The translations under genes and the position numbers were made by a program. From positions 431 to 64,430 of the forward strand of contig CAITMK010000004.1 of assembly GCA_903893485.1 (NCBI GenBank): a stretch of 64,000 nucleotides of DNA. Direction: 5' to 3'. Positions 41,953 through 63,604 of the stretch are shown here, piece after piece (the first letter of the stretch is position 1; each line of letters starts with the position of its first letter). A model generated the notes under the pieces. It saw nothing but the letters and a program-made list of their open reading frames with translations. It had not been told where the DNA came from and searched no databases. Origin of the DNA: Candidatus Magasanikiibacteriota bacterium (GTDB taxonomy: Bacteria; Patescibacteriota; Patescibacteriia; Magasanikbacterales; 2-02-FULL-50-9b).

Positions 41953-42537
41953 TTAATTTTTATCCGAAAGCAGCCAATCCAAATTCATTAGTTCCCTCTG
42001 AACTTTCAAAGTGTTCCCATGTCGCAACAATCCTCGATATGACTGTATTCGACCCTCAACACCCTGAACCAGTATCCGCCGAAACATTCGCTGTTTTGAC
42101 GCTCTACGCAATATGCGATGTTTTGGAAAATTAACCCATCCTAAAAAATCAACGCCCAAAACGATTGATTGAAGATAAATTTTATCTGGGTGAATTACCA
42201 GCCCAAGCTCCGACTGCAAAAAATTATCCATCAACCGAAGTTGTCCCTCTAGCCATGCACGGTCATGTGACATCACAACGAAATCATCGGCGTATCGAAT
42301 ATAAAACCGCGCCTTCAGTTTATGCTTCACAAACTGATCGAACACATTCATATACACGTTGGTGAATAGCTGTGATGTTAAGTTACCAAGTGGTAAACCT
42401 ACACCCGCAGATGTCTCAAAACTTTTTATAATATGTTCCAGCAGATCCATGATCCGTTCATCAGGAATATAGCACCTTAAAATCTTAATGAGCCGTGCGT
42501 GATCGATGTTTGCGAAAAACTTCCGAATATCACATTT
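41953..42537 (-). pseudogene. 5'-truncated reverse transcriptase with DGR-type motif 4.
   Basis: Minus frame reads VLKCDIRKFFANIDH (motif 3), GLPLGNLTSQLFTNVYMNVFD ([ILV]GxxxSQ is DGR-specific), IRYADDFVV (motif 5), FLGW (motif 7). No motifs 1-2 in any frame upstream. The ORF-track N-terminal 45 aa are an out-of-frame readthrough of the neighbouring GC-rich gene. Confidence 0.7.
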
Positions 42538-43177
42538 CAAAACCGGGCTGTTTCCATAAAGAGTTGCGAACGGCGAGAAACCGATAGTTGCCGTTCCAGC
42601 TGTTGCTCCACCAGAACAGGTCCAGCTTCCGCTCGTCACCGTTCCGGTAGAGGTACGGGGCACGGCGGTCGTCACCGTGACCCCAGATCGAACCCAAGCC
42701 CATGATCGCGTACTTGCGCTGTTCGTCGGGATTTTTCACGGCGTAGGCCAGGAGTTCGCGCAACGTCGCAGGACGGAAGCCATCTTTGTCCATCGCCGAA
42801 ACGACGTCCTTGGACGACATGTCCTTGCCGAAGTGGTAGAGCTTGACCTGGAGGTTCTGCTCGCCCGTCTCATGCGCCTGGTTCGGGAAGTTCTTCTCGA
42901 CGATGTCGTCGTACTTCCAGTCGAACGCGGCGGCCGTGATGGCGTCGATCAGCTTGAGCGCGTAATCGACCGAAAGCACTTCGCAGCCGTCGGGAATGGT
43001 GATCCCGCGCTCAGCCATGATCTGCTTGGCGATCTCAGTGGCCAGCTTCTTGTCCTTGAGGATGCGCAGGATGTCTTCATCGTTGCCGCCCATGTCGAGC
43101 ACGGCGTTGACGAGCACCTTCACGACCTCGAACATTTTGCCAAAGTTCTTGAGCAATTCACTTACAGGACGAGCCAT
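42530..43177 (-). CDS. Hypothetical protein (215 aa), GC-rich islet 4, occupying the position of the RT 5' half.
   Basis: GAGAGG SD. GC about 58% from about 42545 to 43270 with an abrupt drop at both edges. The + strand ORF 42677..43348 is a shadow. Confidence 0.5.
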   Translation of the reverse strand: MARPVSELLKNFGKMFEVVKVLVNAVLDMGGNDEDILRILKDKKLATEIAKQIMAERGITIPDGCEVLSVDYALKLIDAITAAAFDWKYDDIVEKNFPNQAHETGEQNLQVKLYHFGKDMSSKDVVSAMDKDGFRPATLRELLAYAVKNPDEQRKYAIMGLGSIWGHGDDRRAPYLYRNGDERKLDLFWWSNSWNGNYRFLAVRNSLWKQPGFEM

Positions 43178-57271: not shown

Positions 57272-57861
57272 AAAATAGTATTAATCGCTTTTTCATGGCG
57301 CGAATCAAGCACTTCGTAAATAAAACGATCCATGAGTTGGCGGCGTTCTTCGAATTCGCGCAGCGGCATAATCGCATAACGCACAGCGATTCCATGATCG
57401 TGTTCAAATTCATTCATGATTTTTGTTAGCTCGTGTGCAGGCACCGTACCAACGATGAGCATGTCGACTGAAGTATTTGCATTCGTAAATGATCCGGTAA
57501 AAAGCAAAAGTTTAATATCACCCAAACCAACAATTTGATTACGCAAAGAATCTTCGCCAAGCACATGTGATTTTAAAAGTAGCGCGCGCAATTCTGGATA
57601 CAGTGGTGACGCCTCGTTCAATCGATAATATTTTCGTTTTGCTTCGTGTGCATCTTCGGCCTCGCCGGTAAGATTCTCTGGCGCATCAACCGCAGCAATA
57701 ATTCCTGAATTGGTTAAATGCGTCAGTTCACGGCGAACTGCGTTAATCTGTGTATCTGCCAAACGGGTCAATTCGCGCACAAAAAAATGCCTTTGCGGTT
57801 CACGATAAAAAAGGCGGAGAAGTTTGACGCGAGTTCTGGAGCCAAAAAGATGGTCAAGCAT
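57268..57861 (-). CDS. Winged-helix plus nucleotidyltransferase-fold hypothetical regulator.
   Basis: 197 aa. N-terminal HTH (FVRELTRLADTQINAVRRELTHL), C-terminal NTase-like region. Confidence 0.35.
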   Translation of the reverse strand: MLDHLFGSRTRVKLLRLFYREPQRHFFVRELTRLADTQINAVRRELTHLTNSGIIAAVDAPENLTGEAEDAHEAKRKYYRLNEASPLYPELRALLLKSHVLGEDSLRNQIVGLGDIKLLLFTGSFTNANTSVDMLIVGTVPAHELTKIMNEFEHDHGIAVRYAIMPLREFEERRQLMDRFIYEVLDSRHEKAINTIL

Positions 57862-57904
57862 GTGTATCTATAGTATACTTGGGGCAAGCCCCCTGGTCAA
57901 TGGT

Positions 57905-59968
57905 ATGAATGAACGACTTTCCCTTCAAATTAACGATTTTTTAATCGAGGGACGTGACGAAGAAAAATCGCACGTCATCCTAGAAATCGCAAAACCCGTG
58001 CCCGAGGAACTCCTCACACACGGGCATTTTATTGCTTTGGCTGAAATGGCCGGCGCAACCCCAAAAACAATCAACATGGTTCGCGCCTGGGTTGAATTTG
58101 CGATTGATGCATTTTACGGATCCGTTCCAAGCAACCTTGAACAACATTTTGAAGATTTGCTGCAGCGTTTAAATACACAAAGTTCATTATATTTAAAACA
58201 ACACCCCGAAACACAGCTGCACATGGCGATTTTGGCCATTCGTGGTACCGATGTGCTTCTTTCATTTCATGGCGCACCAAGTGTGCTTCTTTTATATCGC
58301 AAACAAGATTCGTGGCATTCCATGAATTTAGCTGAAGCCGATGCAGCGCCTGCTGCCCTGTTTTCGAACGTGCTTACGGGCACACTGCGCCCCGGCGATC
58401 GTATGTGTCTTGCATCAGGCCGTGTCATCGAATTTTTCTCGGCCGATCGCATTGCAAAACTGTGCGAAACAAAATCAACTGCCGAAGTAGCCGAGCACAT
58501 GGCACGGATTTTAAACGATCTTGCAGCCGACGTTTCTTTTGCAGGCGCGTGTATTGAGTTGGAAAAAATTATCGAACCAGAACCCGAAGCGGAATTACCC
58601 GCACGCGTTGCTGAAGCGCCACAAAAAAAATCAATTCATTCGATGAAAGAGTTGTTGCAAAAAACTACATCCACCGAATCTCTTTTATCGCCGCCGGTTA
58701 TTTCAATTTCAAAAGATAAAGTGGTAACCGATACTTTGCGCATTGTGCAGCGTGGTGCGGTTGCGGTTGGACGCGTCACGGTTGGTGCAATTCAAAGTAC
58801 TGCCACATTTACCAAACGTAGCACGCCGCATGTTTCACGCGTCTGTCGTTCTACCTGGCAACATGTTCATAAGTTTTTAGACGCGCGCGCTCCAAACTCG
58901 CGCAAAAATATTCAAATTGGCGTTGGCGCAATTGCCGCAATTTTACTTATTGGTGGTGGTGTTTTATTTTATCGGAGCCACGCCGCGGGTATTGCCGCCG
59001 ATCGAGCAGCACTTGCAGAAATTCAAAATGGTGTACAAGCAGCAGATGGTGCAATTACGTTTCAAAATTCAAGCCGCGCAATCGAATTAATTACCACCGC
59101 GCGCAGCCAATTTAATTTACTTTCAAAAAATGCACAGTCCGGCACTGATGGTGTTGCACTTGAGGCGTCGATCACGAACGAAGAATTAAAAATTTATCGC
59201 GTAACACCCGTTGCATTTGAGCAAGTTGCGCCGCATACCGACGCAACACAAATTGCCGTTGTGCGTTCAACACCATTTACACTTTCTGTGGATGGCGCGC
59301 TCAGCACCATGCGCAACGGCGCGCTCACCGCGGCAATTTCAGTGCCTGCAAAAACCAACATGTTGTTCGATCCTGATGGCGATCGATTATTATTCCCTGG
59401 CTTAGACGGCTCAATTAAGGCGGTTGCATCGCGCACCATGGTGGCGACTGATTTAAAAATTGATCATCCTGCAGAGCAAACACATTTTGATGCAATGCAA
59501 ATTTATTCTGGGCGCTTGTACGTGTACGACAGTGCGCTACAAAAAATTTATCGCTACGACAAAACGCCAACTGGTTTTGGCAATGGTACTTCGTGGATTA
59601 AAGATAGTGGCAAACCGATGGGCGTAACCGCGCTACAAGCCGACACCTCGCTGTGGATGCTCACCAACGTTGGCGCACTTTTGAAATACACTGCCGGTAA
59701 GGCGCAACTTTTTCACCCAAGCGGCGCGGTGCCCGAATTGCAACACATCGATTCGTTTCAACTTGGTGGCGGCTCAAATAATTTGTATATTTTGGATCAC
59801 GCAAATAATCGCATTGCGGTTTTGGATCGCAGTGGCGCGCTGGTTAAGCAATATCGCTTCCCTGCAGGCAGCAATTTGCGCGCGTTTGATATTGATGATA
59901 AAGAAACGACGATTTTTGGGATTTCGGATGATGGAAAGTTAATTAAATTTGCAGTTTCGGCGCAGTAA
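57905..59968 (+). CDS. Large hypothetical membrane protein. Cytoplasmic N-domain, single TM, extracellular beta-propeller (NHL/YVTN-like) domain.
   Basis: TM helix IQIGVGAIAAILLIGGGVLFY. C-terminal repeats such as NNLYILDHANNRIAVLD. Start at MNERL avoids overlap with the upstream gene. Confidence 0.5.
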   Translation: MNERLSLQINDFLIEGRDEEKSHVILEIAKPVPEELLTHGHFIALAEMAGATPKTINMVRAWVEFAIDAFYGSVPSNLEQHFEDLLQRLNTQSSLYLKQHPETQLHMAILAIRGTDVLLSFHGAPSVLLLYRKQDSWHSMNLAEADAAPAALFSNVLTGTLRPGDRMCLASGRVIEFFSADRIAKLCETKSTAEVAEHMARILNDLAADVSFAGACIELEKIIEPEPEAELPARVAEAPQKKSIHSMKELLQKTTSTESLLSPPVISISKDKVVTDTLRIVQRGAVAVGRVTVGAIQSTATFTKRSTPHVSRVCRSTWQHVHKFLDARAPNSRKNIQIGVGAIAAILLIGGGVLFYRSHAAGIAADRAALAEIQNGVQAADGAITFQNSSRAIELITTARSQFNLLSKNAQSGTDGVALEASITNEELKIYRVTPVAFEQVAPHTDATQIAVVRSTPFTLSVDGALSTMRNGALTAAISVPAKTNMLFDPDGDRLLFPGLDGSIKAVASRTMVATDLKIDHPAEQTHFDAMQIYSGRLYVYDSALQKIYRYDKTPTGFGNGTSWIKDSGKPMGVTALQADTSLWMLTNVGALLKYTAGKAQLFHPSGAVPELQHIDSFQLGGGSNNLYILDHANNRIAVLDRSGALVKQYRFPAGSNLRAFDIDDKETTIFGISDDGKLIKFAVSAQ

Positions 59969-59970
59969 TT

Positions 59971-60107
59971 TTTCTTTTATCCTCTGAGGAGACGCGTCAG
60001 TTTCCCCGGCGGGAAACTGCGCTCGGCCTCGGCGCGGCTCGTCTTGGCTTCGCCAAGACTCCGGCCCGCCGCGCCTGCGGATGCTCCTCAGCGAACAAAA
60101 GAAAAAC
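59971..60107 (+). repeat. Structured GC-rich palindromic repeat, copy A.
   Basis: Flanking IR tttcttttat..ctgaggag / ctcctcag..aaaagaaaaac. Core hairpins cagtttccc-cggc-gggaaactg and gtcttggc-ttc-gccaagac. About 91% identical to copy B. Confidence 0.8.
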
Positions 60108-60199
60108 TTGCCCCAAAAAAATGCAAACGCCCACGCCGCCGTAAAGAAAGTTAGGAAATTTGTATACAGCATGTTTATGTGAACACGGGGGCAATCAAT

Positions 60200-60964
60200 T
60201 CATTTAACCGATTCCATCGACTTGTCTTTATTATTGTATAATTTTCTAATCAACTTTCCAATTTCCATTCTCATTTCATTTGTAATCCCAACTGTTGACT
60301 GGAGATTGTTGCTCCATGCATAAATCTTAATTATTTTGGTTGATAGTGACAAATCAAATTCATAAATGTCACAAGTCTTTTTTGCAACCAGTAGTTTTTC
60401 ATGCCTGATCGGTGTCGGCTTAAAATAGTTTTTAAAAATCTCTGTTGCTTCTTTGCCATTTATTAACAAAATTTCAACCCTTTCTTCTATAAGCTGCCTC
60501 TCCAAAAAGATAATATTACTTTGGATAAGCTGTTTTTTTGTTAAATAATCTAAACTTCTCCAAATTGGATCTGTCGCCCATTGAATAATATCTAAATGGC
60601 AGGCCGTACCTGTATAATAAGAAACAGAAAAACCTTTAAGAATATTGTTTTCTAATTGGTCGAACCATTTTTTATACGGATTATTTTGGAAATACTTTAA
60701 ACAAGTGTCAAATACTTTTTCAGCTTGTGCCTGTGTTAAACTTGATAAACTGTTTGCATTAAGAGAACTTAATGTTTCAAGCCTTCTTTGTTTTTCGACT
60801 AATTCTTTGCCGTCTTTTTGAAACTCATTTTTGCTTGGATTTATTCCAAGCGTTGCAACGGTTGCGTTTTTAATATTTCCAAAAAACACAATCGGAGTCG
60901 ACCCACCTACAATAAATGAATTGTTTGCATTTGTCCTAATTCTTAATTCTGTGATTTTTTTCAT
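60200..60964 (-). CDS. AT-rich hypothetical protein (254 aa), possible UDG-superfamily fold.
   Basis: About 33% GC. FFGNIKNATVATLGINPSKNEFQKDGKELV aligns to UDG family-4/MUG motif A (vFGEGnpdAklmivGEgPGeeED.tG.PFv, GINPG in MUG). Bracketed by inverted repeat copies A and C. Confidence 0.45.
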   Translation of the reverse strand: MKKITELRIRTNANNSFIVGGSTPIVFFGNIKNATVATLGINPSKNEFQKDGKELVEKQRRLETLSSLNANSLSSLTQAQAEKVFDTCLKYFQNNPYKKWFDQLENNILKGFSVSYYTGTACHLDIIQWATDPIWRSLDYLTKKQLIQSNIIFLERQLIEERVEILLINGKEATEIFKNYFKPTPIRHEKLLVAKKTCDIYEFDLSLSTKIIKIYAWSNNLQSTVGITNEMRMEIGKLIRKLYNNKDKSMESVK

Positions 60965-61176
60965 AATTTATTCAAGAATGAAGAAGAGGTTGGGTCCACA
61001 TGCAGCTCGCAATATTACCTTCTTACCATACTGCTATAGCCTTGTAGAAGACTTTTTATTTGCTCTGTCTCGGTTGATTTTGTAATTACTTCCCCGTAGC
61101 CGCAGTCTATCATATGTTATCCGTATAATACAAAAAGGAAATAAGCCTCCCTGAAGGATTTTTATTTTGAGGTTCA

Positions 61177-61318
61177 TTTTTCTCTTTTGTTTTTTTCGGA
61201 GATATCCGGAGGCGCGGCGGGCTGGTGTCTTGCCGAAGGCAAGACGAGCCGAGCCGGGGTTAAGCGCAAAATCGCGCTGGCGATTTTGACGCGGCTCCGA
61301 AAAAAACAAAAGAGAAAA
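61177..61318 (-). repeat. Structured GC-rich palindromic repeat, copy C, opposite orientation to A and B.
   Basis: Perfect 24-bp terminal IR ttttctcttttgtttttttcggag / ctccgaaaaaaacaaaagagaaaa. RC core retains the ggag-cgcgtca start. Hairpins caaaatcgc-cagc-gcgattttg and gtcttgcc-ttc-ggcaagac covary with A and B. Confidence 0.8.
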
Positions 61319-61379
61319 TTCGTAGCGCAAAACAAAAAACCGCCCTTTCGAGCGGCCTTTTTGTTTCGGAAAAGAAAAA

Positions 61380-61781
61380 TTATTTAACAGCTACCTTAGC
61401 ACCTGCTTCTTCCAATTTCTTTTTCAATTCTTCTGCTTCTGCTTTGCCAACTGCTTCCTTAACAGCCTTTGGAGCTGCGTCTACGAGGCCTTTAGCTTCT
61501 GCGAGACCCAAACCGGTTACTTCGCGAACTACTTTAATAACACCGATTTTGTTTGCACCTGCTTCGAGGAGTTCAACAGTAAATTCTGTTTTTTCTTCTG
61601 CTGCAGCTGCTGGACCTGCTGCTGGACCTGCCATCATCATGGCTGGAGCTGCTGCAGATACGCCGTAGTGATCTTCAAGAACTTTAACAAGTTCTGAAAG
61701 GTCGAGAACTGAGAGCTTGTCGATTGATTCGATCAAACCAGCAAATTTTGCTGGGATTTCTTTCTTTGTTTCGTCTGACAT
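61380..61781 (-). CDS. rplL: 50S ribosomal protein L7/L12.
   Basis: 133 aa with an Ala/Pro hinge and C-terminal [17 protein letters not shown]...[10 protein letters not shown]. Confidence 0.95.
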
Positions 61782-61792
61782 ATATAATTAGA

Positions 61793-62320
61793 TTAAGCTT
61801 GAGCTTTTTTTTCTTCGATTGCGTGAAGCGCGGTAACAAAACCACGAGTAACGCCAGCAAGTGTACCCACGAGGCCAGACAATGGCGCATTGATAACGCC
61901 AACGAGCTGTCCGAGGAGCTGCTGTTTGGTTGGAAGTGCGGCGAGTGCTTTCACACCTGCTGCGTCAATGAATTTACCCTCGAGCAAACCGCCCAAGATT
62001 TGAATCGTTGTTACTTCTTTACCGATGTTTGCAATAAGTGTAGCGGCGCTGATTTCATCGTTCATGCCAAATGCGACTGCAACGTTGCCGTCCATAGCTT
62101 TTGCGTTGATTTCATAGCCTGCTGCTTTTGCTGCCAGTGTGATGAGTGTCTTTTTTGCCACTACATAATCAACACCAACTTTTTCTGCACCGCGACGTAC
62201 TTTTGATACATCTTTTACGGTGACGCCTTTGTAGTTTACAAAAACCACGGCTTTTGATTTCTTAAAAGCTTCGGTCAGTTCTGCAAGGGCGACTTCTTTT
62301 TGTGAGCGTGTTTTTGCCAT
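61793..62320 (-). CDS. rplJ: 50S ribosomal protein L10.
   Basis: Start at MAKTRSQKEVALAEL. The upstream 31 codons of the ORF-track call are likely leader. Confidence 0.9.
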   Translation of the reverse strand: MAKTRSQKEVALAELTEAFKKSKAVVFVNYKGVTVKDVSKVRRGAEKVGVDYVVAKKTLITLAAKAAGYEINAKAMDGNVAVAFGMNDEISAATLIANIGKEVTTIQILGGLLEGKFIDAAGVKALAALPTKQQLLGQLVGVINAPLSGLVGTLAGVTRGFVTALHAIEEKKAQA

Positions 62321-62470
62321 ACAAAAAATTTGCGGCTTAACCGCAAACGTGAGATCACCCCGACCTTTACCTAAAAGTGTAGAGTGGATGGCCTCGGCGG
62401 GACTTATGGGCATTTTTTGGCGCCCAGCCTGCTGTCTGCGGTAGTGAGGACATATTACCGAATTAAGTTG
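62321..62470 (-). promoter_or_regulatory. Probable rplJ (L10) leader / autoregulatory 5' UTR.
   Basis: About 150-nt structured untranslated region immediately upstream of rplJ (ggccatccactctacactttt...gtcggggtgatctcacgtttgcggttaagccgcaaa). By analogy with L10-leader elements, not sequence-verified. Confidence 0.3.
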
Positions 62471-62477
62471 CTTGTGT

Positions 62478-62620
62478 CAAGTCTGAAAGTTCCCTCTGGC
62501 ACACGTGTCAGTTTGCCCGGCGGCAAACTGCACTCGGCCTCGGCGCGGGCTCGTCTTGGCTGCGCCAAGACACCGGCCCGCCGCGCCTGCGGATGGTGCC
62601 AGAGGGAACTTTCAGACTTG
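62478..62620 (+). repeat. Structured GC-rich palindromic repeat, copy B.
   Basis: Perfect 25-bp terminal IR caagtctgaaagttccctctggcac / gtgccagagggaactttcagacttg. Core hairpins cagtttgcc-cggc-ggcaaactg and gtcttggc-tgc-gccaagac. Confidence 0.85.
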
Positions 62621-62652
62621 AGTAACTCAATCCGGTAATTAACCACAAAATA

Positions 62653-62681
62653 TTGACAAAATGGCTAAAATGTGATATATT
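62653..62681 (+). promoter_or_regulatory. Near-consensus sigma70 promoter TTGACA-17-TATATT.
   Basis: ttgaca aaatggctaaaatgtga tatatt, 75 nt upstream of the 62757 ATG. GGAG SD at 62747-62750. Confidence 0.6.
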
Positions 62682-62756: not shown

Positions 62757-63128
62757 ATGGATACGAGTACTACAACTACGGCGCCCTGGCATAGCCCGGA
62801 CGGAAAGGCGGATCGCATCAAGGCGATCTGGGGCGACAATGTCCCCGATTACCTCTGGTACGCGGTTTTGAACCCGCTCACGAAGGAGCAGCAGCTCGAA
62901 ATCATCGCGCTCGTCGAAAACGAGATGTTCGCGGCCGATAACCGTCCTGATTTCGGCAGCATCGAGTGGCATTTTGGCAAAGTGCCCGCTACCGAAGGCA
63001 AAACGGAACTTCGCGTGCGCGGCGCCGACAAGCTCCTGCTTTCCCTGGAAATCAAAGGAGTGACGCTGCCGCTGCATGTCGTCGGCCACAAAAGACAGCC
63101 CGCGACGCGCATCGACTTCACGGCGTAG
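62757..63128 (+). CDS. Hypothetical protein (about 123 aa), GC-rich islet 5.
   Basis: ATG start MDTSTTTTAPW after GGAG. GC about 60%. Minus-strand ORFs 62754..63455 and 62849..63145 are shadows. Confidence 0.55.
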   Translation: MDTSTTTTAPWHSPDGKADRIKAIWGDNVPDYLWYAVLNPLTKEQQLEIIALVENEMFAADNRPDFGSIEWHFGKVPATEGKTELRVRGADKLLLSLEIKGVTLPLHVVGHKRQPATRIDFTA

Positions 63129-63158: not shown

Positions 63159-63203
63159 CCCCATCCCGCTTCGGTCATCGACTGGAGTGGGGTGTTTTAT
63201 TTT
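63159..63203 (+). terminator. Probable rho-independent terminator.
   Basis: ccccatcc...ggagtgggg stem followed by tgttttatttt. Confidence 0.45.
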
Positions 63204-63604
63204 ACAAAAATTTAAATAAAAAAACACCTCATACTCCTGGGCCCAGGAATATGAGGCATGGTGTGCGATCAGCTTGGCTGAGGTTTGTCGGAGGGTTTCC
63301 CTTTCCGAATACGCGACACCGTCTGTTTCGTGGAGGTATTTGCACCCCGCTGTTGCATATTGAGCTGCTTGTGGCGGGCAGAAACTTGCGCTCCTGCTGA
63401 GAGTGCGCAAAGGGTACCCAGTTAACCACAGCACTGTTTCGTGCAGCCCATACAACCGAACCCACCGACAAGGAGTTTAACCCTGTCATCGCAACTGCAC
63501 GTCCCACAAGGGGTTCGATGCACTGCGCGATTTGCCCGCACGGACACCATCGGTGGTTTTTCAGACTGTTAAAATAGTACGTTACTTTTGGGATAGCGTC
63601 AAGA

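Follow-up and report, generated by a model that had tools for sequence, protein, structure and literature searches.

Integron attC sites and the T-shaped terminal hairpins of parvoviruses are folded DNAs of about 60–145 nt with a long stem and a branched terminal structure; in both, structure counts more than sequence, and both lie at the borders of mobile cargo. Miniature inverted-repeat transposable elements (MITEs), repetitive extragenic palindromes (REP) and bacterial interspersed mosaic elements (BIME) are small, non-coding, hairpin-forming and intergenic, often lie at gene 3′ ends and have no transposase of their own, and integrative islands at tRNA-gene ends have the att sites of tyrosine recombinases, with direct repeats of the target's 3′ end. 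Here we describe three copies (A, B and C) of a hairpin element in a 64,000-nt stretch of contig CAITMK010000004.1 (the whole stretch is called the window), from a member of Candidatus Magasanikbacteria (candidate phyla radiation, CPR). The copies border two foreign segments that lie on either side of the rplJ-rplL operon, one of which carries a single gene for a 254-aa protein with a predicted uracil-DNA glycosylase (UDG) fold. The interpretation that we prefer, with a probability of about 0.5, is that of a small, structured junction or integration element, previously undescribed, with horizontally acquired cargo.

The element resembles attC sites and parvovirus hairpins in architecture only, having a long stem with a branched end at the borders of mobile cargo; neither attC boxes, nor a uniform orientation, nor a Rep or IntI gene was found, however, and its stems contain host sequence. 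With MITEs and REP/BIME it shares all the traits listed above, but conservation lies in its centre and variation at its ends, whereas in a MITE it is the other way round. In addition, its ends copy local host DNA, its copies are very few, and those in the window have no short target-site duplication, in all of which it departs from MITEs and REP/BIME alike. Relatives of the element found in other contigs are similar to tRNA-end islands, as one (L094) has a perfect 21-nt repeat of a tRNA-Ser 3′ end and another (L020) a repeat of the 3′ end of rplL, by which the gene stays intact. In contrast to such islands, the "island" is only 60–140 nt long, no integrase was found, the conserved core lies inside a stem that mimics the T-arm, and the window copies are without direct repeats.

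The first foreign insertion occupies 59969–61318 of the window, beside the rplJ-rplL operon and with rplL as its right-hand neighbour. Repeats A (59969–60106) and C (61178–61318) are inverted relative to each other, 76% complementary over 114 nt and spaced by 1121 nt, and between them a single open reading frame (ORF) of 254 aa was found on the minus strand. The GC content was 31.4% for this ORF and 33.8% for the cargo segment, compared with 45.3% for the window, and fell to 30–35% over 60200–61100. The third repeat, copy B, was located at 62477–62621, upstream of rplJ, and repeat and covariance-model scans of the 64-kb window revealed no copies beyond these three. In the preliminary description of this DNA, inverted repeats were said to bracket one AT-rich gene in a cassette lying directly by rplL and abutting the end of a 714-aa gene (59968); the repeat, composition and coordinate data agree with it on these points.

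The closest matches to the L10 protein were from Candidatus Magasanikbacteria, and seven related loci were compared, i.e. L016 (L10 82% identical), L017–19, L020–22, L042 and L044 (67–71% identical); a search of GTDB genomes with L10 returned only distant phyla (identity ≤49%) and no Magasanikbacteria. In each of the seven loci, rplL is followed within 1–143 nt by a convergent gene of ~700 aa, beyond which the downstream genes are those of the window, the syntenic genes adjoining rplL in L017, L020 and L044 being of 700–705 aa. Neither a UDG-like gene at the rplL site nor rpoB after rplL was found in any of the seven. Since the relatives have rplL directly abutting the ~700-aa gene, without the UDG-like gene, the region 59969–61318 is an insertion, as had been proposed earlier. 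The same comparison goes against the earlier statement that rpoB is usually found at this place: on gene order, the ~700-aa gene and not rpoB is the ancestral neighbour of rplL in this lineage. Comparison of the translations also showed that the C-terminus of the 714-aa protein (KFAVSAQ*) resembles that of its L016 counterpart (KFAVTK*).

Upstream of rplJ, the spacer to the AA_kinase gene is ~175–200 nt in L040 and L044 and ~1.95 kb in the window genome, the extra DNA consisting of copy B and a 54% GC segment with two plus-strand genes. The corresponding spacer of L020 (8226–10001) contains additional small ORFs (238, 117 and 65 aa) absent from L040 and L044; variability of this site is therefore not confined to a single lineage. 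Signs of foreign cargo include GC contents of 31–34% and 54% against 45% for the window, the location of the nearest UDG-like homologues in contigs of 35–38% GC, and the ORFan status of one gene in the GC-rich segment; judged by composition, the low GC of the first insertion is a mark of the foreign origin of its cargo. Similarity of the cargo segment to other contigs was confined to the ORF part, the closest homologues being 71% identical at the amino acid and 73% at the nucleotide level over the ORF only.

Contigs of three independent assemblies, arriving from both sides, end at 61046, 61061 and 61073, and another end lies at 61196, inside copy C, as would be produced by a chimera in which unrelated contigs had been joined at the repeats. 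Positions 61047–61060 are uncovered between the two longest contigs, and continuity there depends on the 65-kb NCBI contig and on the adjacency of rplL and the ~700-aa gene in relatives. Yet both contig ends already hold AT-rich cargo sequence, the flanking genes are adjacent in relatives so that the ends must face each other, and copies B and C were recovered in assemblies of four samples; a chimera is therefore scarcely credible. The break could be due to low coverage or strain heterogeneity in the cargo. It was also noticed that a 24-nt direct repeat (75%; 61038–61061 and 61144–61167) sits at the break.

Each copy is itself a hairpin, with stems of 23 bp in A (87%), 26 bp in B (perfect) and 24 bp in C (perfect) that enclose a core of 92–93 nt and 65–73% GC. 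The core consists of two hairpins, which together with the stem form a three-way junction; fold z-scores were −5.6, −11.4 and −9.7, and covariance-model scores 128, 123 and 105 bits, for A, B and C, respectively. Over five copies, including those outside the window, hairpin 1 is 96.6% paired and 8 of its 12 pairs show compensatory changes, a covariation reached by none of 500 shuffles, slid controls being 22–61% paired. Hairpin 2 has one compensatory pair, and all five copies have kept the base of P3. These pair counts use a corrected register, since the structure line of covariance model R2 was two columns off. The core is a structure-constrained, undescribed small DNA element. Coding potential of the cores was considered and rejected, as the short ORFs are by-products of the repeats and the compensatory changes fit pairing, not a peptide.

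Strong covariation and very stable folds are also in keeping with a structured RNA, such as a 3′-end stabiliser, an insulator or terminator, or a small RNA gene, kept for a role in the neighbouring transcripts. Copies A and C closely follow the 714-aa gene and rplL, respectively, both in the sense direction, and the G-T wobbles (58:82 in A and B; a C-to-T change in hairpin 2 of L012) pair only on the canonical strand. However, copy B lies between two divergent promoters and on the strand without a predicted upstream promoter, in L020 and L094 the copy runs antisense to the gene before it, Rfam 15 gave no match to the elements at gathering scores or even at E ≤ 10, and the flank duplications are events at the DNA level. 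An RNA role as the reason for the conservation is thus considered improbable.

The consensus boxes of attC sites are RYYYAAC and GTTRRRY. The elements, at ~140 nt and hairpin-forming, with single-gene foreign inserts of differing GC lying between them, might be taken for attC sites of a cluster without integrase, the genes being its cassettes; that UDG-like defence genes are known integron cassettes (10.1101/2025.10.29.685425) was counted for this explanation. Inspection of the arms argues otherwise, as RYYYAAC is missing from the 5′ arms and GTTRRRY from the 3′ arms, copy B having the reversed arrangement GTTCCCT...AGGGAAC. Moreover, the stems of B and C are perfect, without extrahelical bases or an unpaired spacer, the orientations alternate (B plus, C minus, A plus), rplJ-rplL is not a cassette, and there is no integrase among the called genes within 10 kb. 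We consider an attC origin highly unlikely.

To compare the two sides of each copy, the left flank was aligned with the reverse complement of the right flank. Complementarity was found to continue in register past the perfect stems in all three copies, to a total of ~45–50 nt. The host arm of B comprises the spacer and −10 box of the rplJ promoter, the −35 box overlapping the perfect stem (extension p ≤ 0.002), and a further pair of 19-nt arms (84%) is present; the host arm of C reaches the T-tract of the rplL terminator (extension p 0.004–0.014), and that of A includes the last codons of the 714-aa gene. No palindrome was found at the corresponding sites in relatives (region sequences of L016, L040 and L044). 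At the B site of relatives, the AA_kinase stop codon lies just 10–28 nt upstream of the −35 box, leaving no room for a native palindrome, on which ground the cargo-side arm is read as an inverted duplicate of host DNA. By this reading of the flanks, each copy is closed by a stem in which the neighbouring host DNA is repeated in inverted form.

All three copies sit at a border between host and foreign DNA, and in all three the order is host DNA, hairpin 1, hairpin 2, inverted host copy and foreign DNA. No significant direct repeat was found flanking the single copies A, B and C. As a separate observation, the cargo-side flank of A (60107–60135, CTTGCCCCAAAAAAATGCAAACGCC) resembles L094 1745–1784 (CTTGCCCCCAAGAAAATAGGGCAATCC), the 40 nt between tRNA-Ser and the element; a weak alignment of the same flank with the end of the 714-aa gene, inverted, conflicts with the likeness to L094.

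Identity between cores was 86/93 for A–B, 71/93 for A–C and 67/94 for B–C, and that between stems 14/27, 17/24 and 11/26, respectively; the core of A is thus nearest to that of B and not to that of its supposed partner C, while its stem is closest to that of C. These values bear on the proposal of the preliminary description that the insertion is a MITE-mobilised or composite cassette, i.e. one transposon with A and C as its terminal inverted repeats, by which the UDG-like gene was moved as a unit. Such a transposon would account for the inverted arrangement of A and C around a single foreign gene and for their related stems, and a weak direct match of 9/11 (TTCG(TA)GCGCA) occurs near both outer boundaries. 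But a match of this quality is reached by 30% of random pairs (p about 0.3), so that the search for a target-site duplication around the A-to-C unit, which had been suggested as a check, returned nothing significant. Furthermore, stems are not common to the copies, the outer halves of the repeats are host sequence, B alone borders an unrelated insertion, no transposase is among the called genes within 10 kb, and homologues of the gene occur elsewhere without the repeats, no element copy being present in the contigs of the closest UDG-like homologues. The proposal could not be upheld, and a composite transposon is regarded as even less probable than a structured RNA.

Relatives of the core were found at two other kinds of site. 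In L094, a contig of 38% GC, a short-type core lies after tRNA-Ser(CGA), and on both sides of it the 3′ end of the tRNA, from within the T-loop, is repeated directly and without mismatch over 21 nt; a 9–14-nt inverted copy of the tRNA-end sequence forms the stem, and only ~40 nt of extra DNA accompanies the core. In L020–22 the core, again of the short type, comes after the stop codon of rplL, and the 28-nt direct repeats (86%) on either side of it correspond to the 3′ end of that gene, which is itself a hairpin. The short cores of L020–22 and L094 are identical over ~35 nt, with compensated hairpin-1 stems; they are without the distal hairpin 2 and a 13-nt tail but keep the base of P3. Its position after different targets in different lineages shows, on comparison of these contigs, that the core is or was mobile. 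Two further features of L094 were noted: a degenerate piece of the core (GAGGCGGACAGGCGCGCGGGCAAAATGGGCTGA, 1600–1660) lies downstream of the second tRNA-end repeat, which suggests tandem insertions, and a LAGLIDADG-type ORF (1852–2859) overlaps the start of tRNA-Ser.

Wider searches added little to these copies. A strict pattern of the core (GACNCCNGCCCGCCGCGCCTNCGGAT) had no match in GTDB species genomes or JGI metagenomes, and a relaxed gapped pattern, which matches all copies, gave at least 120 metagenome matches; among the matches listed, L094 was the only true one, the rest lying in contigs of 56–77% GC without the hairpin. Viral contigs gave no real element match, blastn with copy A against phages and plasmids gave no match, and covariance models R1 and R2 detected no further copies over ~1.1 Mb of related and other loci. 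A loose pattern of the tail was discarded, as it produced only chance matches in GC-rich phage contigs.

Cargo-free solo copies, such as those of L020–22 and that of L094 with its small amount of extra DNA, raise the question whether the elements are selfish miniature repeats that landed independently in new, non-essential intergenic DNA, unrelated to the arrival of the foreign genes, their stems being lengthened later by quasi-palindrome template switching, in which the constrained host side was copied over the unconstrained one. Compact CPR genomes concentrate free intergenic DNA around insertions, perfect inner and decayed outer stems fit ongoing palindrome repair, and the affinities of A, in core to B and in stem to C, suggest gene conversion between neighbouring copies. 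Against independent landing, all three copies lie exactly at a host/foreign border, A one base past a stop codon and B overlapping a −35 box, their polarity is identical, and neither the remaining 61 kb of the window nor ~0.5 Mb of sequence from related and other loci contains a copy. Independent selfish repeats are a possible but unlikely explanation, and a better candidate than any other alternative considered here.

As regards the cargo, the preliminary description had called the 254-aa protein UDG-like, and structure prediction bears this out. An AlphaFold2 model based on a 63-sequence alignment had a predicted local distance difference test score of 95.5 and a predicted template-modelling score of 0.92, and the predicted fold is the alpha/beta UDG fold with a four-stranded parallel beta-sheet. 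In a Foldseek search of the PDB, the best match was the Sulfolobus tokodaii family 4 UDG (1.8e-6), and TDG, UdgX and SMUG1 came next. Residues G40, N42, P43 and S44 are invariant in the 63 homologues and lie directly after strand beta-1 (36–40), which is the place of motif A. This motif is GINPG in family 2 and GMNPG in family 3 (PMC4787834), and GINPS of the 254-aa protein has 4 of the 5 residues of the family 2 motif.

Compared with MUG/TDG (family 2) and SMUG (family 3), the protein has Ser instead of Gly as the fifth residue of motif A and W-S-x-N-L-Q-S as motif B, where theirs is MPSSAR (or NPSGLS in family 2) or HPSPRN; it is ~60 residues longer and shows no detectable sequence similarity to them. 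Family 4 UDG and UdgX have GE(A/Q)PG or GE(A/G)PG as motif A and four Fe-S cysteines, whereas only two cysteines (C88 and C122) are conserved here, leaving no four-cysteine Fe-S site. The predicted fold and the position of motif A place the protein in the UDG superfamily, and its motif B, its cysteines and the lack of sequence relation would set it apart from families 1–5, i.e. in no described family. It has at least 459 homologues across phyla, all unnamed and none with a Pfam domain, and searches of Pfam, NCBIfam, PHROGs and PADLOC gave no usable match. The window copy keeps every invariant residue, which argues that the gene is probably functional.

The protein is most likely a monofunctional DNA glycosylase, in which, by analogy with MUG/TDG, the motif-A asparagine would support excision of uracil or a modified pyrimidine. 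Such an enzyme could serve in repair, or in defence against phages with modified DNA in the manner of Brig1 and Brig2, which are anti-phage defence enzymes with a UDG fold (PMC11078745; 10.1101/2025.10.29.685425), and a role as host defence or repair glycosylase is at least as likely as one in anti-restriction or counter-defence. The protein is similar to Brig1 and Brig2 in being a horizontally spread UDG-fold protein encoded by a single gene and annotated as hypothetical, and to Brig1 in having the same S. tokodaii enzyme as its best structural match. Homologues of Brig2 tend to occur in AT-rich, recently acquired DNA (PMC11078745; 10.1101/2025.10.29.685425), and the present gene also lies in acquired AT-rich DNA, but unlike Brig1/Brig2 it has homologues that lie among housekeeping genes, and PADLOC gave no match.

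Taken as a junction or integration element, the hairpin may be the end module of a small non-autonomous integrating element that would act as folded single-stranded or cruciform DNA and not as a transposase-bound terminal repeat. It would insert at gene 3′ ends or operon borders, could bring or capture cargo, and would depend on a moving enzyme supplied in trans; the inverted host copy might arise at integration, or later by template switching at the hairpin. A more far-reaching version is that the three-way-junction core represents an undescribed class of DNA integration module in candidate-phylum bacteria, in which folded DNA with a recognition stem made from an inverted copy of the target serves as a port for single foreign genes beside essential operons and tRNA genes, such genes being represented here by the UDG-fold glycosylase and ORFan genes; we offer it tentatively, as it is clearly less probable than the simpler interpretation.

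Several observations weigh against an integration element with acquired cargo. The clustering of three copies in 2.7 kb may be due in part to the window having little intergenic DNA at other places, the same polarity in three of three copies has a chance probability of 0.25, and the extension of the stem is weakly significant for A (p 0.02–0.07). Only five independent copies from three lineages are known, and with direct repeats in L020 and L094 but inverted flank duplications in the window copies, one mechanism is not demonstrated. No transposase, integrase or recombinase was found by Pfam among the called genes within 10 kb on either side; for all window ORFs, a Pfam scan listed 25 of 91 families, and a recombinase farther away in the window is possible. 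A hairpin on the far side of the GC-rich insertion has no more than a 10-mer in common with the core and is not a copy of the element. A link to a diversity-generating retroelement (DGR) or retron was also considered and rejected, the only reverse transcriptase of the window being a truncated DGR-type fragment 17 kb away, for which no template or variable repeat (TR/VR) was found.

On the cargo side, the same must be said of the following: searches with Pfam and PDB profiles linked the sequence to no UDG model and no solved structure, comparison by hhalign with an approximate E. coli Mug sequence gave a non-significant probability of 0.35%, and motif B differs from that of known UDG families. 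No sigma-70-like promoter was found upstream of the UDG-like gene, the Bacteroidota homologues (L046–48) lie among housekeeping genes and not in defence islands, and the PADLOC scan matched the protein to no defence system.

Table 1. Coordinates of the hairpin element copies, cargo and neighbouring features (window positions unless indicated)
Feature	Position	Strand	Remarks
714-aa gene	57824–59968	+	Host ORF, function unassigned, no Pfam match; ends one base before copy A
Copy A	59948–60127	+	Host arm 59948–59991 (59969–59991 near-perfect), core 59992–60083, inverted host copy 60084–60127
Cargo segment	60128–61154		AT-rich, ~34% GC; absent from all related loci
UDG-superfamily gene (predicted)	60200–60964	-	Motif A L39-G-I-N42-P-S44; invariant ACHLD 121–125, Q128, W135, N220-x-Q222
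Copy C	61155–61341	-	Cargo arm 61155–61201, core 61202–61294, host arm 61295–61341 reaching into rplL terminator
rplL terminator hairpin	61330–61366	-	Inverted repeat in host sequence; homologous terminator in L020
rplJ-rplL operon	61380–62480	-	Pfam; rplL 61380–61781, rplJ 61793–62320
L10 leader-like region	62313–62459	-	Rfam 33.5 bits, E 0.0076, below gathering score of 44
rplJ promoter	62480–62452	-	TTGACA-17-TAATAT; position conserved in L016, L040 and L044
Copy B	62454–62639	+	Host arm 62454–62502 (rplJ promoter spacer, −35 box), core 62503–62595, inverted copy 62596–62639
Second foreign segment	62640–64000, on to ~64200 beyond the window (L012 7584–9140)	+	54% GC; bordered by copy B
123-aa gene	62757–63128	+	Near-consensus sigma-70-type promoter 62653–62681
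174-aa ORFan gene	from 63675	+	One of the two plus-strand genes of the segment

For the gene that accompanies the ORFan in the GC-rich segment, 1.84 billion representatives included only 38 relatives, all distant, and the automatic ENA gene calls here (248 aa and 136 aa) seem to have the strand wrong. A region of ~360 nt between these two genes (63240–63600; 50–55% GC) is non-coding and bounded by a bidirectional terminator-like hairpin (63162–63259); Rfam gave no match to 63240–63600, which may be an RNA of a new kind. The far end of the insertion (L012 7514–7584, corresponding to ~64198–64268) has a different GC-rich hairpin (CCCGCGCCGAGCCAACC...GGTCGGCTCGAGGCGCGGG). In the L10 leader-like region, the box ACTACCGCAGACAGCAGG is common to the relatives. 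The reverse transcriptase mentioned above (41953–42675, in the region 41953–43177, minus strand) is truncated at the N-terminus and has YADD and a motif 4 of the DGR type (LGNLTSQ). It lies by tRNA-Trp, overlapping a 215-aa ORF at the end of the latter, and probably represents the decayed remains of a diversity-generating retroelement. An assignment of the region 42–43 kb to rplK-rplA was considered and proved wrong.

The genomes of candidate-phylum bacteria are tiny, and knowledge of their mobile elements and gene uptake is scant. The present locus is a clean case with both filled and empty sites, in which two foreign segments flank an essential ribosomal operon. The border element is absent from databases (Rfam), it has features that could not be matched to any described class, and it can be searched for with covariance models; if it is truly an integration module, it would represent a new way of inserting DNA. 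The cargo protein stands for at least 459 unnamed proteins, which would make up a branch of the UDG superfamily that has yet to be characterised and has an active-site motif of the Asn type, at a time when enzymes of the UDG fold have recently been shown to be anti-phage defences.

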